Shown here one piece after another: positions 1-7,915 of a DNA stretch of 7,980 nt. The position numbers and the translations under genes are program-made. The notes beneath the pieces are model-generated. The model did not search any database. It was not told where the DNA came from and saw only the letters and a list, made by a program, of their open reading frames with translations. Location: sequence record NZ_CP121825.1; one strand, written 5' to 3'. Source of the DNA: a plasmid. Each line of letters opens with the position of its first letter. Within the stretch, counting starts at the first letter, position 1.

Positions 1-6
1 AAAAGT

Positions 7-34
7 GGTGCGCATAACGCCTTTTATGTTCAAT
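7..34. other. dif-like XerC/XerD recombination site. XerC arm GGTGCGCATAA, central CGCCTT, XerD arm TTATGTTCAAT.
   Basis: The XerC arm is identical to the E. coli dif XerC arm. The right arm differs from the dif XerD arm TTATGTTAAAT by one base. The spacing is 11-6-11. A second copy lies 4983 bp downstream in the same orientation. Confidence 0.75.
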
Positions 35-472
35 TGCCGATTTCACATGGCAAAACGGCCACTCCGTCAGGATGCGGCCGCCTGTATCGCGTTTTGGGGC
101 GTTTTGACACACAAGACAGGGCGTTTATCGCCTGAAAGTTTGCAACGCTTCTGGGGCGGTTTTAGGGCTGGATCCTGCGTGGTATGGTTTCAGCGCGTTT
201 TAACAGCCTATCGAGCATTAGCCTCGGCTGCCCTCCGAGCGTGTCCAGCGAACTCCTTCGGGGCCGCCAGGTTGATTTCCTGAAGCGGAAGGGCTGAGGC
301 TTCGCCATTAGTAATAGGGGAGGGACTTGTCTCACTGCGTTGTTGAGCGAAGTCCATCAAGGTGGGGGCAGTGGTCCCGCTCTGTGGAGATCAGTGCAGC
401 ACTCCTGAACGGGAGCGACTAGCGCAGTCTGTCGCGCCCCGTTCGGGAGGTGGCAAGCGCAGCGCGGCAGCC

Positions 473-715
473 TTAACGGCTGCTGAGATCCACCTCGATG
501 CGGCGAAAACCGATGGTGTGCGCCGTGTTCACCCCGGCATCGATGGTCTTAAAGACCCGCCACCCTCCGCGCTGGCGTTCCAGCACTTCCGTTTCTGCAT
601 TGCGGCCAAACTTCACCAGGTGAAGATGGTAGCCGGCACCCATCGGGGTCGGGGCGATCACCGCCTTGGCAAATCCCCCTTGTTCAAATACCCACTTCGC
701 CTTGATCTCTTCCAT
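473..715 (-). CDS. Conserved hypothetical small protein of 80 aa (MEEIKAKWVFEQGGFAKAVIAPTPMGAGYHLHLVKFGRNAE...).
   Basis: Complete ORF. All 7 nucleotide substitutions against copy 2 within the shared frame are synonymous (GCC/GCT, GTG/GTT, GGG/GGC, GGT/GGG, AAG/AAA, AGC/AGT, CTC/CTA). That argues for real coding on the minus strand. No confident family assignment. Confidence 0.7.
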   Translation of the reverse strand: MEEIKAKWVFEQGGFAKAVIAPTPMGAGYHLHLVKFGRNAETEVLERQRGGWRVFKTIDAGVNTAHTIGFRRIEVDLSSR

Positions 716-729
716 ATCAAAAACCTATT

Positions 730-797
730 TTGATGGTTCGTATCTGCGTTATGACACCAACACAGCCAAACATCAAATTATAATTACGAACCATCAA
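730..797. promoter_or_regulatory. Inverted repeat with 13-bp arms (TTGATGGTTCGTA ... TACGAACCATCAA) and a 42-bp AT-rich spacer. It lies upstream of the minus-strand 80-aa gene.
   Basis: Perfect arms in copy 1. Copy 2 (5650-5717) carries two compensatory arm changes (G:C to A:T at two paired positions), so the pairing is preserved. Confidence 0.6.
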
Positions 798-823
798 ATT
801 CTTATTTTGATTGGCGTTACTCA

Positions 824-960
824 GGTTCGTAGAACCGCACTCGGGTTTCAAAGGGGCGCCCCTTTGGCACGCCGATAGGATGCAGGCACGCCGACGGTAC
901 AAACGCAGTTTGTATACGCTCGGTCTCGTGCCTGTATACAGTCGGTGTCGTGCCTGTCTG
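824..960. repeat. Dense cluster of short palindromes and direct repeats. GGTTCgtaGAACC is at 824-836. The 18-bp perfect palindrome CAAAGGGGCGCCCCTTTG is at 849-866. TACAAACgcaGTTTGTA is at 898-914. The direct repeat GGCACGCCGA occurs twice. CGGTnTCGTGCCTGT occurs twice at 921-957.
   Basis: Seen directly in the sequence and conserved in copy 2 at 5744-5880. Cis-acting site cluster that looks like an origin or att site. Confidence 0.6.
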
Positions 961-981
961 CACTAACACCGCAACCACTAG

Positions 982-1080
982 ACCTACAGAATACCTACCG
1001 TTTACCTACAGAATCCCTACTGTCTACCTACGGCCTGCCTACTGTTTGCCTACAGAACACCTACGGAATACCTACAGAAT
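982..1080 (+). repeat. Nine contiguous 11-bp direct repeats (consensus aCCTACaGaat).
   Basis: Units at 982, 993, 1004, 1015, 1026, 1037, 1048, 1059 and 1070. The invariant core CCTAC recurs once per helical turn. Absent from element 2. Confidence 0.85.
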
Positions 1081-1110
1081 GGAGAGCAAAACTGATGACA
1101 GGTGGCGAGG

Positions 1111-1181
1111 CCACAAAAAGACCCACAAAATAACCCACACACACCAAGCGACCCACACATTGCCCCACAAAAAGACCCACA
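1111..1181 (+). repeat. Six copies of (C)CCACA spaced 12-18 bp apart.
   Basis: CCACA or CCCACA at 1111, 1122, 1134, 1152, 1164 and 1176. Element 2 has only a single CCTACA and ACCCACA at the equivalent place. Confidence 0.7.
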
Positions 1182-1196
1182 GAATCGGATACCAAA

Positions 1197-1409
1197 TTGA
1201 TGAATCAAAAAACGAATTTGAAGAGCATTCCTGAGGAGCAGTTCAGCCCGTACCGAGCCGCTGACTACCTAACGACCCCAGCGGAGATTGCCGCCTACAT
1301 CGAGGTCGCCAAGGAGGAAAACGATCCGGCCCTTCTCGCTGCCGTCATGGAGGACATCCGCCAAATCGAGACGGTGCAACATGCCAGCAAAACGCGAATC
1401 CTGCCTTAG
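1197..1409 (+). CDS. Small protein of 70 aa resembling the N-terminal domain of HigA-family addiction-module antidote proteins (..AADYLTTPAEIAAYIEVAKEENDPALLAAVMEDI..). No helix-turn-helix domain.
   Basis: The motif pattern DYL..PE.IAAYL.A..E.DPAL is typical of that family. In the conserved 3' half, 7 of 8 substitutions against copy 2 are synonymous. Confidence 0.6.
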   Translation: MMNQKTNLKSIPEEQFSPYRAADYLTTPAEIAAYIEVAKEENDPALLAAVMEDIRQIETVQHASKTRILP

Positions 1410-1442
1410 CCATAGAGCAACCATGAATTTCGTACGTACGAA
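1394..1442. repeat. 49-bp direct-repeat unit R1 (GCGAATCCTGCC...AATTTCGTACGTACGAA) containing the perfect 14-bp palindrome TTCGTACGTACGAA (1429-1442).
   Basis: Repeated at 1577-1616 with the palindrome at 1603-1616. The same pair occurs in element 2 (palindromes at 6833-6846 and 7006-7019). Confidence 0.8.
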
Positions 1443-1458
1443 GAAAAGGGGGCACACA

Positions 1459-1641
1459 GTGACATATCAGAGGCTGACGAAACAAGAACTCACCGAGCTA
1501 CGGGAGGAAATGAGGGCCGCCGGAGAATGGGCTAAAACCGTCTTGGAACAAGAGCGGCGGCAGCCGGTACCAAATTGCGAATCCTGCCCTAGCACCTCAA
1601 ATTTCGTACGTACGAAAAAACCAACCCCGCTCCGTGGATAA
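1459..1641 (+). CDS. Hypothetical 60-aa protein with a GTG start (VTYQRLTKQELTELREEMRAAGEWAKTVLEQERRQ...).
   Basis: Strong Shine-Dalgarno AAAGGGGG 6 nt upstream. Present in both elements (6862-7044). Its N-terminal half is conserved, mostly through synonymous or conservative changes. Confidence 0.45.
   Translation: MTYQRLTKQELTELREEMRAAGEWAKTVLEQERRQPVPNCESCPSTSNFVRTKKPTPLRG
1577..1616. repeat. Direct-repeat unit R2 with the second TTCGTACGTACGAA palindrome.
   Basis: See R1. Confidence 0.8.
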
Positions 1642-2382
1642 GCCCTACTGCCCACAGGCCAAAAACACGGCCTGATGGACAGCCCTTCGGGAACGGGCTT
1701 AACCACCTCGCCAAGATCCTCTCTCGATTATGAAGAGCTCAAAGACAACGGCCTAAAGGCCGCGCGAAAAAGGATGTCGCAGAGCTCCCCGGTCAGCAGG
1801 CTCTCCTATCTTTCCGCTGCGCTTCAAGATAGGAGAGCCCTCCTGCTTGGCTACGTTAAAAATGACGTAGTTACACAAGATAGACTCGCCTTGCTCCGGA
1901 CTATCGAGACCGCTTGCGGCAGCTCCCTCTCACGCGCTCCAGAGACACACCCCGTCCTTGCTGCATCTGCTTTAGTCCCCGCCTGATGGCCAGACTGCCT
2001 CGCCGTTTTTTAAGAGCTGGCCGTGGTTGGTTCCCCGTTACGCTCTGCTTGCAAATGCCCCAGGGTTGCGAGTCCTGGGAGGCTGTGATGCGCGATCGCA
2101 CGCTGGGCAGTATGTGAGATTTCCCCGTTCTGCCCGACCAACCACACCCACTCACGGCAACAAACTCATGCTTCCAATCCGTGCGGGTACGACAAAGCGC
2201 CAAAGGTGGTGGCCTTTGGTAACGGGCGTAGAGAGAGGGAATGCTTGATTGATGGGCGCCAAGGAGGCTAAACTTATTAGGCTTTTAGGTGACTGCTTCC
2301 CTCTACGGAGCCGTTACCAGGTGAAGTCGGTTCCCCAACTGACTACACCTTCGAACAAACCACCTTGCCGGGTGGTTTTTTT
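1642..2382 (+). ncRNA. Candidate large structured non-coding RNA of about 740 nt, copy 1.
   Basis: No ORF is conserved between the copies (the 103-aa ORF is broken by a stop in copy 2). There are many GC-rich hairpins: GGCCtaaaGGCC, CTCTCCTAT...ATAGGAGAG and CCAAAGG..CCTTTGG. Compensatory substitutions between the copies occur at 2061-2080 (CCAGG/CCTGG against CCACG/CGTGG) and in the helix 2234-2309 (AGAGGGAA/TTCCCTCT against GCGGGAA/TTCCCGC). It ends in an intrinsic terminator. Confidence 0.5.
2357..2382 (+). terminator. Rho-independent terminator: AAACCACCttgccgGGTGGTTTTTTT.
   Basis: A stem of 6-8 bp with a 6-nt loop, followed by a 7-T run. Confidence 0.8.
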
Positions 2383-2481
2383 CGTTTCTGGCGAACAGAA
2401 CAGATCGGGCTGGTAAGGTTCAACCGAGTACTTTCCGAGATCAGCCACGCAACTGGGGAACATATCCAAGCGCATGTGCTG

Positions 2482-2715
2482 ATGACTCGTACCAATCCTA
2501 GCCGCAAGAATTTTGCGGCTATCAGCGATGAACTAACAAGGCTGCCGCACCTCACCATGATGACCTCCAAGTTGAGCCGACGGGCAGACTGGGCCAACCA
2601 GATGGAGTCCGGCTTGGGAGTAACGGAGAGAGCAGCAACTCGCAGCAGCGCAGCGGGAATGGAGGCGAAAGCATTAGCGGAAGAAGTGCGGGAAAAACTT
2701 GCCTCGCTCGCTTAA
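2482..2715 (+). CDS. Hypothetical 77-aa protein (MTRTNPSRKNFAAISDELTRLPHL...). It lies in a 245-bp segment present only in element 1.
   Basis: ORF with an internal ATG. Only the last 20 codons or so are retained in element 2. No family recognised. Confidence 0.25.
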   Translation: MTRTNPSRKNFAAISDELTRLPHLTMMTSKLSRRADWANQMESGLGVTERAATRSSAAGMEAKALAEEVREKLASLA

Positions 2716-2734
2716 TGATATTAATTTAATATCA
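2716..2734. promoter_or_regulatory. 19-bp perfect palindrome TGATATTAAtTTAATATCA. It lies 25 bp upstream of the small ribbon-helix-helix-like gene and is a likely operator overlapping its promoter.
   Basis: Conserved exactly at 7872-7890 in element 2. Confidence 0.6.
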
Positions 2735-2758
2735 AATAGATACGAAAGAGATATTAAA

Positions 2759-2999
2759 ATGGCAAGAAAACTAATCAATCTGGATGACCTTGGCGCAGGA
2801 GCCCCCCCTCAAAGAGGTGGTAGCGGCGACTGGCAGCAGAGGGAAGATCCCCACCAAGGCCAAGAATATCCAGAACATGCCGTTGGAGTTTTTTACACGC
2901 CACGCGGCGTTGAGGGAAAAGGGCAATACCAGCTTGCTATTCACTCCGTACATCATCGAAGCAGTCCGCAAAGCACTGGAAGAAGACGAACAGAGCTAA
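2759..2999 (+). pseudogene. Small protein of about 79 aa with a ribbon-helix-helix-like C-terminus (...KIPTKAKNIQNMPLEFFTRHAALREKGNTSLLFTPYIIEAVRKALEEDEQS). It is frameshifted at the 7-C run 2802-2808.
   Basis: Element 2 (7916 onwards) has 6 C and reads straight through from ATG into the ..LKEVV.. frame. Element 1 needs a -1 correction at the C-run to join ATG 2759 to the 2784-2999 frame. Confidence 0.5.
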
Positions 3000-3044
3000 C
3001 AATAGCATCACAGGCCATACCCACCAGTGGGCATGACCTCAACG

Positions 3045-3078
3045 ATAAGGGGCATCCGTTTAACGCAACGCCCCTTAT
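3045..3078. terminator. Hairpin ATAAGGGGC-(16 nt)-GCCCCTTAT between the convergent small gene and the methyltransferase gene. No clear U-run on either strand.
   Basis: A perfect 9-bp stem seen in the sequence. Possible bidirectional terminator, weak. Confidence 0.3.
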
Positions 3079-3121
3079 CTGCACTCAATTCACACTACAA
3101 TTTTGCTTTAAAGATAGATAG

Positions 3122-4186
3122 TCACACCGACTCAGATTGCATCGCAGGCGTCATATCTTGCGAGGCCAAGTTTTGGCACAAATTACAATCCAACGACACC
3201 GTGTCTCCATTCATAATCCGATTGTAAATGCTCAATACATCCTCGTCAGAGACCCCCTTATCTAGGAAGCGAAATGCGGAGGCTGCGACATACTCAGGCT
3301 GCATTTCAAATGAAATCCACTTTCGAGACTCTTTCTCAGCAACCATCCCTGTTGTGTTCGAACCGCCAAAAATGTCTACAACAAGATCACCTGGCTCGGT
3401 CAACATTCTAATAAAAAACTCAGGCAACTTTGCTGGAAATCTAGCTGGGTGGGCCTTAACCCCCACAATTTTGCAACCAGCTTGATACTGCCCATTTGAC
3501 TCAGAGTTTGGTATTTGCAGCAAATTAGGAGGAATTGCCCCTCCATTGTCATTTGCAAATGACTTCCCTATGTCATGACCGGAAGGTCTAACTTTTGGAG
3601 TATAAAATTTATCTGGATCCTCCAACAGTTTTTTCATGCGATCACTATATGGAGCCAAAACTTTAGTTATATCTGATTTTGGCCATTCCGTTTTGCTGAA
3701 CCACCAAACAGTATTAACAGCATCTTTAACCCGGATTTTTCTTTTATTAACCCACTCGATTGGGCTTGGTAGCTTAGAAGGATTAAACCAATAGAAATCT
3801 TCCGCCAAGAAGAAACCCACTTCATCAATCATCCTAATCAAAACCCTAAAGTTATATAGACTTCTTGCTGGCACCCCTTTCATATAGGCACCACCAAAAT
3901 CAACAACAAAACTACCGTCAGGCTTTAACTTTTTAAAAACCACTTTTGCAAAAGATAAAAACCAATCCACGTATTCATGCTGCTCTAAATTTCCATATTC
4001 TTTTTTCCGCTGCAACGCAAACGGAGGGCTGGTCATAACCAAGCTAACGCTCTCGTCCTGAAGAGACTCAAGAAGTTCCAGCGAGTCACCAATGTAAACA
4101 GCCCCGTTACTTGTTGTATAGGCAGGACAAATATCACTTTTCAACATCTTGTTGCTACTCATAGTCTGTAGATTCAAAGTCTTCAC
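3122..4186 (-). CDS. pvuIIM: Beta-class amino-DNA methyltransferase of the M.PvuII type (probably N4-cytosine), 354 aa.
   Basis: Motif IV TSPPF lies near the N-terminus and motif I DIFGGSNTTG near the C-terminus, which is beta-class order. GTG start at 4186 with in-frame ATGs at codons 9 and 14, which parallels the two-start arrangement of M.PvuII. It is divergently arranged with the C and R genes. Confidence 0.9.
   Translation of the reverse strand: MKTLNLQTMSSNKMLKSDICPAYTTSNGAVYIGDSLELLESLQDESVSLVMTSPPFALQRKKEYGNLEQHEYVDWFLSFAKVVFKKLKPDGSFVVDFGGAYMKGVPARSLYNFRVLIRMIDEVGFFLAEDFYWFNPSKLPSPIEWVNKRKIRVKDAVNTVWWFSKTEWPKSDITKVLAPYSDRMKKLLEDPDKFYTPKVRPSGHDIGKSFANDNGGAIPPNLLQIPNSESNGQYQAGCKIVGVKAHPARFPAKLPEFFIRMLTEPGDLVVDIFGGSNTTGMVAEKESRKWISFEMQPEYVAASAFRFLDKGVSDEDVLSIYNRIMNGDTVSLDCNLCQNLASQDMTPAMQSESV
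4156..4181. promoter_or_regulatory. Tandem C-boxes: tACTcatAGTC-TGTA-GATTcaaAGTC. Predicted binding site for the C protein and an activator/operator for the leaderless C-R transcript.
   Basis: Matches the GACT-n3-AGTC half-site pattern with a TGTA centre. It sits 24 bp upstream of the C-gene ATG and inside the N-terminal codons of the methyltransferase gene, as in PvuII. Confidence 0.6.
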
Positions 4187-4204
4187 GCGCTCATTATCTC
4201 GCGT

Positions 4205-4434
4205 ATGACAAAGAATAGAAACCCCTTATCCGCCAGAAAAATACTAGCCCACAACCTCAAAGAAAAGCGGGGGGGGAGCTAGGCCTATCACAAGAAGCTT
4301 TAGCTGACATGGCTGGGCTCCATAGAACTTATGTTGGTTCAGTAGAACGAGCAGAAAGAAACATATCCATAGATAACATTGAACGCCTAGCAAAAGCGCT
4401 CAATGTTCATCCATCATCTCTACTAATGGAATAG
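4205..4434 (+). pseudogene. pvuIIC: Controller (C) protein gene of the XRE helix-turn-helix family. It is frameshifted in the 8-G run 4269-4276.
   Basis: The first frame gives MTKNRNPLSARKILAHNLKEKRGG. The second gives LGLSQEALADMAGLHRTYVGSVERAERNISIDNIERLAKALNV. Joined, they make a typical 76-aa C protein. Nine G would be in frame. Confidence 0.8.
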
Positions 4435-4439
4435 AAGTA

Positions 4440-4920
4440 ATGTCTCATAACGATTTTGAAAAATTAAAAAAAACTATGGCCAAACATCCAGGAATACCAA
4501 GAGCTGGCAACTAAACACGGCATAAAGGATATATTTCAAGATAACGGAGGAAAACTTCTTCAGGTAATTTTAATAACGAACCTACAGGTTCTAAGCGGTA
4601 GGGAGGGTAATGATGCAGTTGATATTAATGGACAGGAGTACGAACTAAAGTCAATCAATATCGATCTAACAAAGGGCTTCTCTACTCATCATCACATGAA
4701 CCCTACAATCATTGCAAAGTACAGAAAGGTTCCATGGATATTTGCCATATACAAAAACATTGAACTCCAGGAGATATATCAGTTGGAGCCAGGTGATTTG
4801 GAATGTTACTATTCCAAGTGGGAGCAAAAATGGCATGAAGATGGAGGGAAGGACATTAACAACCCCAAAATCCCTGTTAGTTTTGTAATAGAAGTCGGAA
4901 AAAAAATATACCCTCAGTGA
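4440..4920 (+). pseudogene. pvuIIR: Restriction endonuclease gene homologous to R.PvuII, about 159 aa. It is frameshifted in the 8-A run 4466-4473.
   Basis: After the frameshift the translation is ..[81 protein letters not shown]. It shows high identity to R.PvuII as I recall it, including the catalytic D..E.K. Seven A would be in frame. The gene starts 5 bp after the C-gene stop. Confidence 0.9.
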
Positions 4921-4989
4921 CTTATAATCGCCAAGGATGGTTCGATTTCTTTACTGCGAGCCAAAAAGTCAACCCGTAACACTAAAAGT

Positions 4990-5017
4990 GGTGCGCATAA
5001 CGCCTTTTATGTTAAAC
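4990..5017. other. Second dif-like XerC/XerD site. GGTGCGCATAA-CGCCTT-TTATGTTAAAC.
   Basis: Same XerC arm and central region as site 1. The XerD arm has one mismatch to the canonical dif arm. It marks the start of the second repeated element. Confidence 0.75.
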
Positions 5018-5391
5018 CACGACTTTTAGCGGCTAAAACGGGGCACAGGCGGCAAACAGGCCGCCTGTATCGCGTTTTGGGGCGTTTCGACACACAAGGC
5101 AGGGCATTTGCAGCCTGAAAGTTTGCAACGCTTCTGAGGCGTTTTTAGGGGCGGAGCCTGCGGGGTATGGTTTTAGCCCGTTTTAGCGGCCTATCGCGCA
5201 TTAGTCTCGGTTGCCCTCCGAGCGTGTCCGACGGACGCCTGCGGGGGCCAATAGGTGAAGCAAAACGGAGTCCATCAATGGTGGGGCCAGCGGCCCCACC
5301 CTGTGGAGATCAGGGCAACACTCCCAAACGGGAGCGACTAGCGCAGTCTGTCGCGCTTCGTTCGGGAGTCGGCAAGCGCAGCGCGGCAGCC

Positions 5392-5635
5392 TTAACGACT
5401 GCTTAGATCCACCTCGATGCGGCGAAAACCGATGGTGTGCGCCGTGTTAACCCCAGCATCGATGGTCTTAAAGACCCGCCAGCCTCCGCGCTGGCGTTCC
5501 AGCACTTCCGTTTCTGCATTGCGGCCAAACTTCACCAGGTGAAGATGGTAGCCGGCCCCCATCGGGGTCGGGGCGATCACCGCTTTGGCAAAGCCCCCCT
5601 TGTTCAAATACCCACTTCGCCTTGATCTCTTCCAT
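5392..5635 (-). pseudogene. Second copy of the 80-aa gene. The N-terminus is frameshifted by one extra nucleotide at a C-run (6 C at 5594-5599 against 5 C in copy 1).
   Basis: The C-terminal 62 aa are identical to copy 1. The frame breaks at the homopolymer. Confidence 0.6.
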
Positions 5636-5994
5636 ATCAAAAACCTGTTTTGATGATTCATATCTACGTTATGACACCAACGCAGCTAAACATCAAATTA
5701 TAATTATGAATAATCAAATTCTAATTTTGATTGGTATTACTCAGGTTCGTAGAACCGCACTCGGGTTTCAAAGGGGGCGACCCTTTGGCACGCCGATAGG
5801 ATGCAGGCACGCCGACGGTACAAACGCAGTTTGTATACGTTCGGTCTCGTGCCTGTATACAGTCGGTGTCGTGCCTGTCTGTTTCTTCAATTTCTGTATG
5901 CACCTACAAAAAACCCACATAAAGGAAGCATAAAGAAGGCGATAGGGAATCAATTGGGGTGCATTTAGAAACCATTAAGGTCATATAAAACCTA

Positions 5995-6062: not shown

Positions 6063-6593
6063 ATGCTGCCGAAACCAAGCAATAAATTCATTCCAAAGAT
6101 CGAGTCATACCTCCACCAAGGGGAGGTATCAAAACCCAAGGCAAAAGTAATCGCCCACGTCTATCCAGAAGTGGAGACGATGATCGAACAAGGCTTTTCC
6201 CTTACTCAAATCGTGGCGGCCATCAATGCGAACGATGTGGGCTTTACCATCACACTTGCCACCTTCAAAAACACCCTGCATAGGCTGCGCAAGCGCCAGA
6301 TTCAACAAGCACCGACACCGAAGAACATCACACAGCCAGCCCGTAACGCATTCCGCGAGAGGCCAAAAAAGATTCAGCACGATAACAATCCTGATCTTGA
6401 TGCGCTGCTAGATAGGCTGGGAGCTGAAGCGGGAACCTTGGCTGACTACTTAAAGGTGTGTTTCAACTCGGAATCTATCGCCAACAGGGCCATAGAGGCT
6501 GGGGTATCCATAGAGGAAATTAGGTCATGGGAATGCCCGAACCAGATCCGGCTTGGCACAAGGTTAAGCCACTTCATTAGAAGTGCATCATAA
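6063..6593 (+). CDS. Hypothetical 176-aa protein unique to element 2, with a possible helix-turn-helix segment (GFSLTQIVAAINANDVGFTITLATFKNTLHRLRKRQ).
   Basis: Long ORF occupying the slot where element 1 has the iterons. There is no clear Shine-Dalgarno at ATG 6063, and an alternative start exists near 6181 after GGAG. No confident family assignment. Confidence 0.45.
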   Translation: MLPKPSNKFIPKIESYLHQGEVSKPKAKVIAHVYPEVETMIEQGFSLTQIVAAINANDVGFTITLATFKNTLHRLRKRQIQQAPTPKNITQPARNAFRERPKKIQHDNNPDLDALLDRLGAEAGTLADYLKVCFNSESIANRAIEAGVSIEEIRSWECPNQIRLGTRLSHFIRSAS

Positions 6594-7044: not shown

Positions 7045-7784
7045 GCCCTACTGCCCACAGGCCAAACACACGGCCTGATGGACAGCCCTTCGGGAACGGG
7101 CTTAACCACCTCGCCAAGATCCTCTCTCGATGATGAAGAGAGCAAAAACAACGGCCTAAAGGCCGTGCAAAAAAAGATGTCGCAAAGCTCCCCAGTTAGC
7201 CGGCTCTCCTATCGTTCCGCTGCGCTTCAAGATAGGAGAGCCCTCCTGCTTGGCTACGTTAAAAATGACGTAGTTACACAAGATTGACTCGCCTTGCTCC
7301 GGACTATCGAGACTGCTTGCGGCAGCTCCCTCTCACGCGCTCCAGAGACACACCCCGTCCTTGCTGCATCTGCTTTAGTCCCCGCCTGATGGCCAGACTG
7401 CCGCGCCGTTTTTTAAGAGCTGGCCGTGGTTGGTTCCCCGTTACGCTCTGCTTGCAAATGCCCCACGGTTGCGAATCGTGGGCGGCAGTGGTGCGCGATC
7501 GCACGCTGGGCAGTATGTGAGATTTCCCCGTTCTGCCCGACCAACCACACCCACAAACGGCAACAAACTCATGCTTCCAATCCGTGCGGGTACGACAAAG
7601 CGCCAAAGGTGGTGGCCTTCGGTAACGGGTCGAGTTGCGGGAAAAGCTTGATTGAATGGCCGAATGGCCGCTAAACTGATTAGGACTTTTGGTAGCTGCT
7701 TCCCGCACGGAGCCGTTACCAGGTGAAGTCGGTTCCCCAACTGACAACACCTTCGAAGAAACCGCCCTGCAAGGCGGTTTTTTC
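7045..7784 (+). ncRNA. Candidate large structured RNA, copy 2.
   Basis: Homologous to 1642-2382, with compensatory changes in three helices. Confidence 0.5.
7758..7784 (+). terminator. Rho-independent terminator, copy 2: AAACCGCCctgcaaGGCGGTTTTTT.
   Basis: The stem is preserved by a compensatory A:T to G:C change relative to copy 1. Confidence 0.8.
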
Positions 7785-7915
7785 GTTTCTGGTGCAACTG
7801 CAGCAGCGCAGCGGGAATGGAGGCGAAAGCATTAGCGGAAGAAGTGCGGGAAAAACTTGTTGCTCGCTTAATGATATTAATTTAATATCAAAATAGATAC
7901 GAAAGAGATATTAAA

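Follow-up and report, generated by a model that had tools for sequence, protein, structure and literature searches.

The PvuII restriction-modification (R-M) system and its C-box circuit are known from pPvu1 (NC_002632.1), a ColE1-type plasmid of Proteus vulgaris. A leaderless transcript activated by the controller protein (C) has been described for PvuII. The wild-type C-boxes depart from the consensus GACT-N3-AGTC-N4-GACT-N3-AGTC only by a TACT in half-box 1A and a GATT in half-box 2A, and the TGTA spacer pairs with the HRTY helix (PMC2175313). Type II R-M genes beside a cer or Xer site, with exchange proposed there, are likewise known from ColE1-type plasmids: examples are pECL18 and pKPN2 (Zakharova 2002) and the qnrB19 plasmids (Tran 2012), both cited in PMC8683028. 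Here we describe a related locus in a stretch of 7,980 nucleotides from the plasmid sequence record NZ_CP121825.1, called the window below. Positions 3086-4989 very probably represent a C-controlled Type IIP R-M cassette of the PvuII family, carried as cargo between the replication and partition region and the Xer site of a small ColE1-type plasmid of the Aeromonas kind. In this reading the breaks in its controller and endonuclease genes are likelier artefacts than real, and two plasmid backbones are joined in the window: element 1 (1-4983), which holds the cassette, and element 2 (from 4984). Near-identical and related copies of the module are already present in public Aeromonas and Raoultella data.

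The PvuII-type cassette

The cassette is made of a methyltransferase gene (M) on the minus strand and, divergent from it, the controller gene (C) and the endonuclease gene (R) on the plus strand. Its features are as follows.

3122-4186, minus strand: M gene, M.PvuII-like, N4-cytosine class, 354 amino acids from GTG; assigned by structure, Pfam and pPvu1 matches
4186-4184, minus strand: GTG start of the long form of M; in-frame ATGs lie at 4162-4160 and 4147-4145
4019-4030, minus strand: codons of the SPPF catalytic motif, amino acids 53-56 of M
4156-4181, plus strand: C-boxes (operators OL and OR), TACTCATAGTCTGTAGATTCAAAGTC, within codons 2-11 of the long M frame
4192-4197, plus strand: CATTAT, the likely -10 hexamer, 7 nucleotides before the C ATG; conserved and collinear with pPvu1
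4205-4434, plus strand: C gene, interrupted; ATG at 4205, stop at 4432-4434
4440-4920, plus strand: R gene, interrupted; ATG at 4440, stop at 4918-4920

M is the only long open reading frame of the cassette, and the plus strand holds short frames at the positions of C and R. The M product matched the structure of M.PvuII (PDB 1BOO) with E = 8e-196 over 314 residues, was 87% identical to the pPvu1 product over 332 amino acids and reached 163 bits with the Pfam domain N6_N4_Mtase; with its SPPF motif it falls among the beta-class N4-cytosine methyltransferases, close to M.PvuII. M.PvuII has an N-terminal extension of 13 codons, and GTG 4186 and ATG 4147, 13 codons apart, align with its two ends; we take these positions to be the two translation starts of PvuII, with the same 13-codon spacing. 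The form that starts at ATG 4147 has 341 amino acids and equals WP_281441142.1, a protein named for Aeromonas veronii; the exact product was found in 19 public Logan contigs. The same kind of look-up gave no match for the 354- and 346-amino-acid forms of M, for a 74-amino-acid fragment of R, for a 41-amino-acid fragment of C or for a 176-amino-acid open reading frame of element 2. Compared with its near-identical public copies, the M gene carries seven substitutions, all of them silent, and the 341-amino-acid products are identical (this count and the one given below for R were made by hand from the alignment listing, not computed by a tool). In scans of species-representative genomes and of metagenomes many PvuII-family loci were found, but their M proteins came no closer than 87-92%. 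A search of complete Escherichia coli genomes with the module gave no match.

The two C-box pairs lie upstream of C and agree with the wild-type boxes of PvuII base for base (26 of 26), the TGTA spacer included. The block to which they belong is fully conserved, while elsewhere the module, which is collinear with pPvu1, has 75% DNA identity to it, and the distance from the boxes to the start of C is the same as in pPvu1. The position of the CATTAT hexamer is compatible with a leaderless C-R transcript. A promoter and terminator scan of 2900-5100 gave fewer matches than were found in shuffles.

Neither C nor R is open in the present sequence. Three-frame translation showed that frame 1 of C stops at 4280-4282, after 25 codons, and that the remainder, ELGLSQEALADMAGLHRTYVGSVERAERNISIDNIERLAKALNVHPSSLLME (ELGLSQEALADMAGLHRTY...LLME), runs in another frame to 4434; frame 1 of R stops at 4512-4514, after 24 codons, with the remainder (LWPNIQEYQ...KIYPQ) in another frame to 4920. 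For comparisons, the frames were repaired by changing a run of eight Gs (G8) in C to G6 (or G9) and a run of eight As (A8) in R to A7. A 75-amino-acid helix-turn-helix (HTH) controller frame, upstream of R and co-oriented with it and containing LHRTY, is obtained only after the G8 to G6 change; its product matched C.BclI (1.5e-14) and C.AhdI (6.9e-13) and was 72% identical to C.PvuII. In the same way, a PvuII-fold endonuclease frame with the catalytic and recognition residues appears only after deletion of one A within 4466-4473. The repaired R of 159 amino acids matched R.PvuII over its full length with E = 7.6e-81 and 77% identity, and the Pfam domain Endonuc-PvuII with 221 bits. All 14 checked positions were unchanged, including D58, E68, K70, S81, T82, H83-H85, N140 and N141; we take these 14 to be catalytic and recognition residues of PvuII. 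The predicted target is CAGCTG, with N4-methylcytosine (m4C) methylation. No CAGCTG occurs in the window, compared with 2.4 +/- 1.6 expected from shuffles, a difference that is not significant; avoidance of the target was rejected as evidence on this ground.

The first-pass annotation of this DNA, made from the letters alone, had proposed a complete module that reproduces the PvuII architecture: an SPPF methyltransferase with two in-frame starts, C-boxes embedded in its N-terminal codons, a leaderless C gene and a nuclease like R.PvuII. The matches of M, of repaired C and of repaired R agree with this, as do the divergent layout of M against C and R, the place of the C-boxes within M and the two M starts. 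For the leaderless C gene the agreement is one of compatibility, through the conserved hexamer. The word "complete" is not supported: every component named was found in its place, to a degree far above chance, but C and R are frameshifted and only M is intact.

If the cassette works as PvuII does, M would be expressed at once from its own promoters, and a weak C-independent promoter would let C build up slowly. C dimers on the left C-box pair would then turn on the strong leaderless C-R transcript, and the nuclease would thus appear only after the host DNA had been methylated. At high C the right C-box pair would be occupied as well, limiting expression. A plasmid-borne cassette of this kind would restrict phage and foreign DNA. 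R-M systems can also stabilise their carrier by post-segregational killing.

Frameshifts in the controller and endonuclease genes

The breaks in C and R both fall in homopolymers, and further lengthened runs are found elsewhere in the window.

4269-4276, plus strand: G8 breaking the C frame; G6 in ten near-identical contigs, CGAGGCGAG in pPvu1
4466-4473, plus strand: A8 breaking the R frame; 7 nucleotides in relatives, A7 in contig L010 and AAAACAA in the others
2759-2999, plus strand: parG-like small gene, frameshifted at a C7 run (2802-2808) that is C6 in every relative and in element 2
1448-1452, 2376-2382, 2802-2808, 4269-4276, 4466-4473, 5243-5247, 5594-5599, 5773-5777 and 7169-7175: runs that exceed those of all close relatives by one or two bases

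The window was compared with ten Logan contigs (L010-L019), each of which encodes an M protein identical to that of the window; L010 is from ERR12019700, and L013 and L014 are from two different sequencing runs (SRR32022315 and SRR32022226). These contigs are 98.4-98.9% identical in DNA to window 2394-4968, and in most of them indels relative to the window are confined to the three homopolymers that shift a frame (C7, G8 and A8). One or two further single-base indels were seen in each of L010, L013 and L014. C is open, with 75 amino acids and exact C-boxes, in all ten. Eight contigs reach the end of R, which is open (159 amino acids) in six of them; L010 has an altered C-terminus and L013 a frameshift of its own. 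The other two end inside R: L014 carries the frameshift of L013, and L015 is open as far as its sequence goes.

Every run of at least five bases in the window was checked against relatives, and 37 could be tested: 31 had the same length, six were longer in the window and none was shorter. The indel listing added three more runs that are longer in the window (T7 at 2376, A8 at 4466 and A7 at 7169). The lengthened runs are found in coding and non-coding DNA and in both elements. One of them, C6 at 5594-5599, frameshifts a conserved 80-amino-acid open reading frame of element 2 (5392-5661, minus strand), at a position where all eight plasmids compared have C5. In element 1 (473-715) the same frame is intact; it corresponds there to a gene that many of the sibling plasmids carry annotated as WP_042469152.1.

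Because the homopolymer insertions go in one direction and occur in both elements, they have the pattern of a systematic base-calling or polishing error, not of replication slippage, and the frameshifts of C and R are therefore rather more likely to be an artefact of base calling or assembly than a real inactivation. Several observations weigh against this. L013 and L014 share a different R frameshift, A4 to A3 at about 4545-4548 of the window, next to intact M and C genes, and R-minus variants thus appear to circulate in the lineage. The loss of parA in element 1 (see below) is a true structural loss that fits a decaying replicon, the change by two bases from G6 to G8 is not the commonest type of sequencing error, and 31 of the 37 runs tested are unchanged. 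If the frameshifts were real, the locus would be a decayed R-M system with C and R dead and M surviving as an orphan methyltransferase, which would still shield the host and the plasmid from PvuII-type nucleases of competing plasmids. We regard such decay as a serious possibility, although we give it less than an even chance. An intact M with silent substitutions only is what it would lead one to find, and it could accommodate the second R frameshift from independent runs, the true deletion of parA with the frameshift in parG, and the merely partial R matches at several PvuII-family loci elsewhere. It does not account well for the fact that all ten differences in homopolymer length from the relatives are insertions, non-coding runs and unrelated genes included, since slippage should also delete. 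Nor do the substitutions in R relative to its relatives, six silent and three replacement, look like those of a long-dead gene. On these counts for M and R, the frameshifts, if real, would be recent.

An explanation chiefly by programmed frameshifting, or by phase variation, of the G and A runs was also considered and rejected, because the ten near-identical copies all have fixed in-frame lengths and because the same kind of insertion occurs in unrelated genes. We still favour a base-calling or assembly artefact. With C and R frameshifted, the present sequence gives no ground for annotating a functional module, and the pattern of extra bases in homopolymers means that pseudogene calls from this record need confirmation at the level of reads.

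Plasmid backbones, cargo slot and Xer sites

The following features define the surroundings of the cassette.

4990-5017, plus strand: Xer (dif-like) core, GGTGCGCATAA-CGCCTT-TTATGTTAAAC, 69 nucleotides past the stop of R and with its XerC arm towards R
7-34, plus strand: Xer core of element 1, in direct orientation relative to the site at 4990
3058-3085, minus strand: degenerate inverted Xer-like site, AGTGCAGATAA-GGGGCG-TTGCGTTAAAC, 36 nucleotides beyond the M stop
2281-2385, plus strand: RNAI gene of the ColE1-type replicon of element 1 (Rfam RF00106, 54.7 bits)
7684-7786, plus strand: RNAI gene of the ColE1-type replicon of element 2 (Rfam RF00106, 57.8 bits)
2395-2715, plus strand: 3' remnant of parA in element 1, from alignment to the sibling plasmids L001, L003 and L008

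The RNAI gene of a ColE1-type (RNAI/RNAII) replicon was found in both elements, above the gathering score of 47 for RF00106, and sibling plasmids have an RNAI match as well. The backbone matched 1374 plasmid records; the best matches were Aeromonas plasmids of 4-10 kb with 90-94% identity, which are complete circular plasmids typed as rep_cluster_2022. Because of the RNAI matches and this identity to plasmids, the repeats are read as ColE1-type plasmid backbones and the dif-like sites as their Xer sites. The two replicons follow one another in the same orientation, and an Xer core lies ahead of each. Both cores have a 6-bp centre and depart from the E. coli dif arms at a single position (in shuffles no such site is expected), and the site at 4990-5017 with its flank is 95% identical to small Aeromonas plasmids. 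The shared blocks of the two elements differ by 5-15%, so they are not an assembly duplication of one plasmid. Judged by these matches, the elements are two related ColE1-type backbones head to tail at Xer sites, which would make them either a heterodimeric cointegrate or a portion of a plasmid with several replicons; plasmids with two Xer sites, or with the backbone present several times, are on record.

The repeats had been called dif-associated elements in the first-pass annotation, and as a statement about integrated elements this is not supported, each unit having its own RNAI above the gathering score and 90-94% identity to autonomous plasmids. A tandem array integrated at a chromosomal dif by XerCD, like an integrative mobile element exploiting Xer (IMEX), with the R-M module as cargo of its first element, is accordingly improbable in our view. 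Two directly repeated dif-like cores with 6-bp centres, so close to the E. coli arms, would suit such an array, as would several decayed-looking genes of the sort that integration might bring; the R-M segment of the window was moreover absent from the plasmid collection searched, though the M protein is in NCBI nr (Aeromonas veronii). Against this stand the ColE1-type replicon in each unit, the end-to-end match to many autonomous circular plasmids of 4-10 kb and the plasmid records with several backbones or two Xer sites already mentioned. The window, whose ends fall inside repeated units, holds no chromosomal sequence. "ColE1-type plasmid backbone with an Xer site" is the better name for such a unit than "dif-associated element".

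The first ~315 nucleotides of parA and its promoter are gone from element 1, where the remnant is fused to the end of RNAI at about 2392-2395, and parA of element 2 (7794-7880) is almost wholly deleted. A full ParA of 211 amino acids is encoded in contigs that carry the same R-M module. In L010, the unit of R-M genes and parAG is joined to an RNAI region 100% identical to that of element 2 (window 7600-7793) and not to that of element 1, a junction that suggests recombination between the two backbones. Element 1 also contains nine tandem 11-bp units (ACCTACAGAAT) at 982-1080 and about five 12-bp units (CCACAAAAAGAC) at 1111-1181, both iteron-like in appearance; element 2 is without these repeats and has, in the equivalent place, a 176-amino-acid open reading frame (6063-6593) with no Pfam match.

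Similarity of element 1 to the sibling plasmids runs from the end of RNAI through the parA remnant and the parG-like gene to 3091, and resumes at 4984-4991. The R-M cassette fills the gap, and its GC content is 40.8%, compared with 53.2% in the rest of the window. In the siblings L002, L005, L006, L007 and L180 the same slot holds other R-M systems or HicAB, and the cargos seen in the slot are the following.

p17ISAe and pAerXV: XcyI-type R-M pair
L006: C-like HTH protein, a 243-amino-acid protein without assigned function and a D12-class (Dam-class) methyltransferase
L007 (pAER-e58e, NZ_CP026410.1): methyltransferase-like protein and annotated nuclease
L005: HicAB
L001/L003 and L008: parAG, then a ParA-like 345-amino-acid gene, or an HTH gene and a 295-amino-acid gene

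It had been suggested from the window alone that the cassette is defence cargo in a variable slot, directly before the next dif-like site. The sibling plasmids and the position of the Xer core bear this out, the frame being that of a plasmid; the slot of element 2 extends beyond the end of the window. In small ColE1-type plasmids of Aeromonas, the region beside the Xer site would thus be a swap-in slot for R-M and addiction genes. In L007, a plasmid of 6.8 kb, a tRNA-Gln(UUG) gene (1879-1953; Rfam 58.5 bits; also called by ARAGORN) lies beside the R-M pair in the slot.

The inverted site at 3058-3085 matches the family consensus at 17 of 22 arm positions, a score reached by none of 200 shuffles, and it coincides with the point (3091) at which similarity to the parAG-carrying sibling plasmids ends; it is possibly a relic module boundary. 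Naderer et al., in 2002, are said to have put the PvuII genes beside a cer site, and this adjacency was tested directly on pPvu1, where an Xer-like core, GGTTCCGATAA-GACCCA-TTATGTTAAAC, lies 21 nucleotides after pvuIIR in the same orientation as in the window. A second Aeromonas lineage, with at least 90% protein identity in M, 77% DNA identity and a Mob_Pre relaxase, stays collinear with the window from a point within M, past R and the Xer core, into the flanking sequence. A cer-like core close to R was also seen in two metagenomic contigs that carry RNAI. Our survey of the PvuII family in genomes and metagenomes covered 160 loci, mostly chromosomal, with R in 136 and C in 134; in the 1.85 Mb of these loci there were only four Xer-like sites, all four inside R or at most about 200 nucleotides from its end.

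With inverted sites at 3058-3085 and 4990-5017, the cassette could be an Xer-bounded mobile module, similar to the dif modules of Acinetobacter, in which XerCD moves the R-M genes. We think this unlikely, but it has several observations in its favour. The left site lies exactly at the border, well above the shuffles; what comes after the equivalent place is a different cargo in each of L001/L003, L008 and the window; a core stands 21-69 nucleotides after R in the same orientation in pPvu1, in L186-L188 and in the window, which share only 75-77% DNA identity; the four sites of the family survey are all inside R or within about 200 nucleotides of its end; and L010 diverges from the window directly after a XerC-type arm. 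The left site is degenerate, however, and is more degraded still in L003 and L008. L011-L018 diverge into a different plasmid backbone at 4968, which is 21 nucleotides before the core and not within it, and parG, M, C and R are linked in ten of ten contigs, so that the left site was never seen as a junction. For the Aeromonas plasmids, recombination by Xer at these sites is a candidate process read from sequence. A broader version, in which the PvuII-type, XcyI-type, Dam-class, HicAB and ParA-like cargos would all be exchangeable Xer-bounded modules and the head-to-tail pair a captured intermediate of an Xer-mediated cointegrate, seems to us less likely again. If true, XerCD would shuffle genes in the manner of dif modules outside Acinetobacter as well, on ColE1-type Aeromonas plasmids; the literature was searched for Aeromonas dif modules, and nothing specific was found. 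In three diverged lineages an Xer core accompanies the end of the nuclease gene, and the window has a relic inverted site at the opposite border; taken together, these hint that Xer recombination moves such cassettes.

Comparison with known systems

PvuII and its regulation through C-boxes, its carriage on plasmids of ColE1 type (pPvu1) and the placing of accessory and R-M genes beside cer or Xer sites, with exchange proposed there, are all known. The significance of this locus is mostly one of cataloguing: it adds another system of the PvuII isoschizomer type. The PvuII system of pPvu1 is the closest described one. Its three genes correspond to those of the window in order and orientation, and its C-boxes, likewise within the N-terminal codons of M, are identical. 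The distances between C-boxes, -10 hexamer and C start codon agree, the in-frame starts of M are separated by 13 codons in both, and R has the same residue at the 14 checked positions, which we take to be catalytic and recognition residues. Its carrier is likewise of the ColE1 family (Rop and MobC are annotated), with an Xer core just downstream of R in the same orientation. The two differ in sequence, with 87% (M), 72% (C) and 77% (R) protein identity and 75% DNA identity. The upstream M start is GTG in the window and ATG in pPvu1, the C-terminus of M is 18 amino acids longer in the window, and C and R are separated there by 5 nucleotides, without overlap. The Xer core follows R after 69 nucleotides and not after 21, the backbone is of the Aeromonas rep_cluster_2022 type without rop or mob, and C and R are frameshifted.

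Closer still in sequence are the public Aeromonas and Raoultella modules of the 90% cluster of WP_281441142.1, which includes WP_103422759.1 and WP_068979543.1, on contigs of 4.6-10 kb. They share an M that is exact or at least 90% identical and the Xer core downstream of R. They differ from the window in that their C (75 amino acids) and R (157-159 amino acids) frames are open, and some of them are on plasmids with a Mob_Pre relaxase instead of the parAG/RNAI backbone.

The plasmids pECL18 and pKPN2 and the qnrB19 plasmids, cited in PMC8683028, are also small RNAI-regulated replicons with accessory genes beside an Xer site, in other hosts and with other R-M systems. Unlike them, the window has two non-identical backbones head to tail at directly repeated Xer sites. 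The dif modules of Acinetobacter (PMC6449649) resemble the cassette in their 28-bp XerC/XerD-type sites with 6-bp centres and in being discrete cassettes with inversely oriented end sites that occur in several plasmid contexts. In the window, by comparison, the left site is degenerate, the breakpoints are not all at sites, the genus and the replicon type are different, and mobility is putative.

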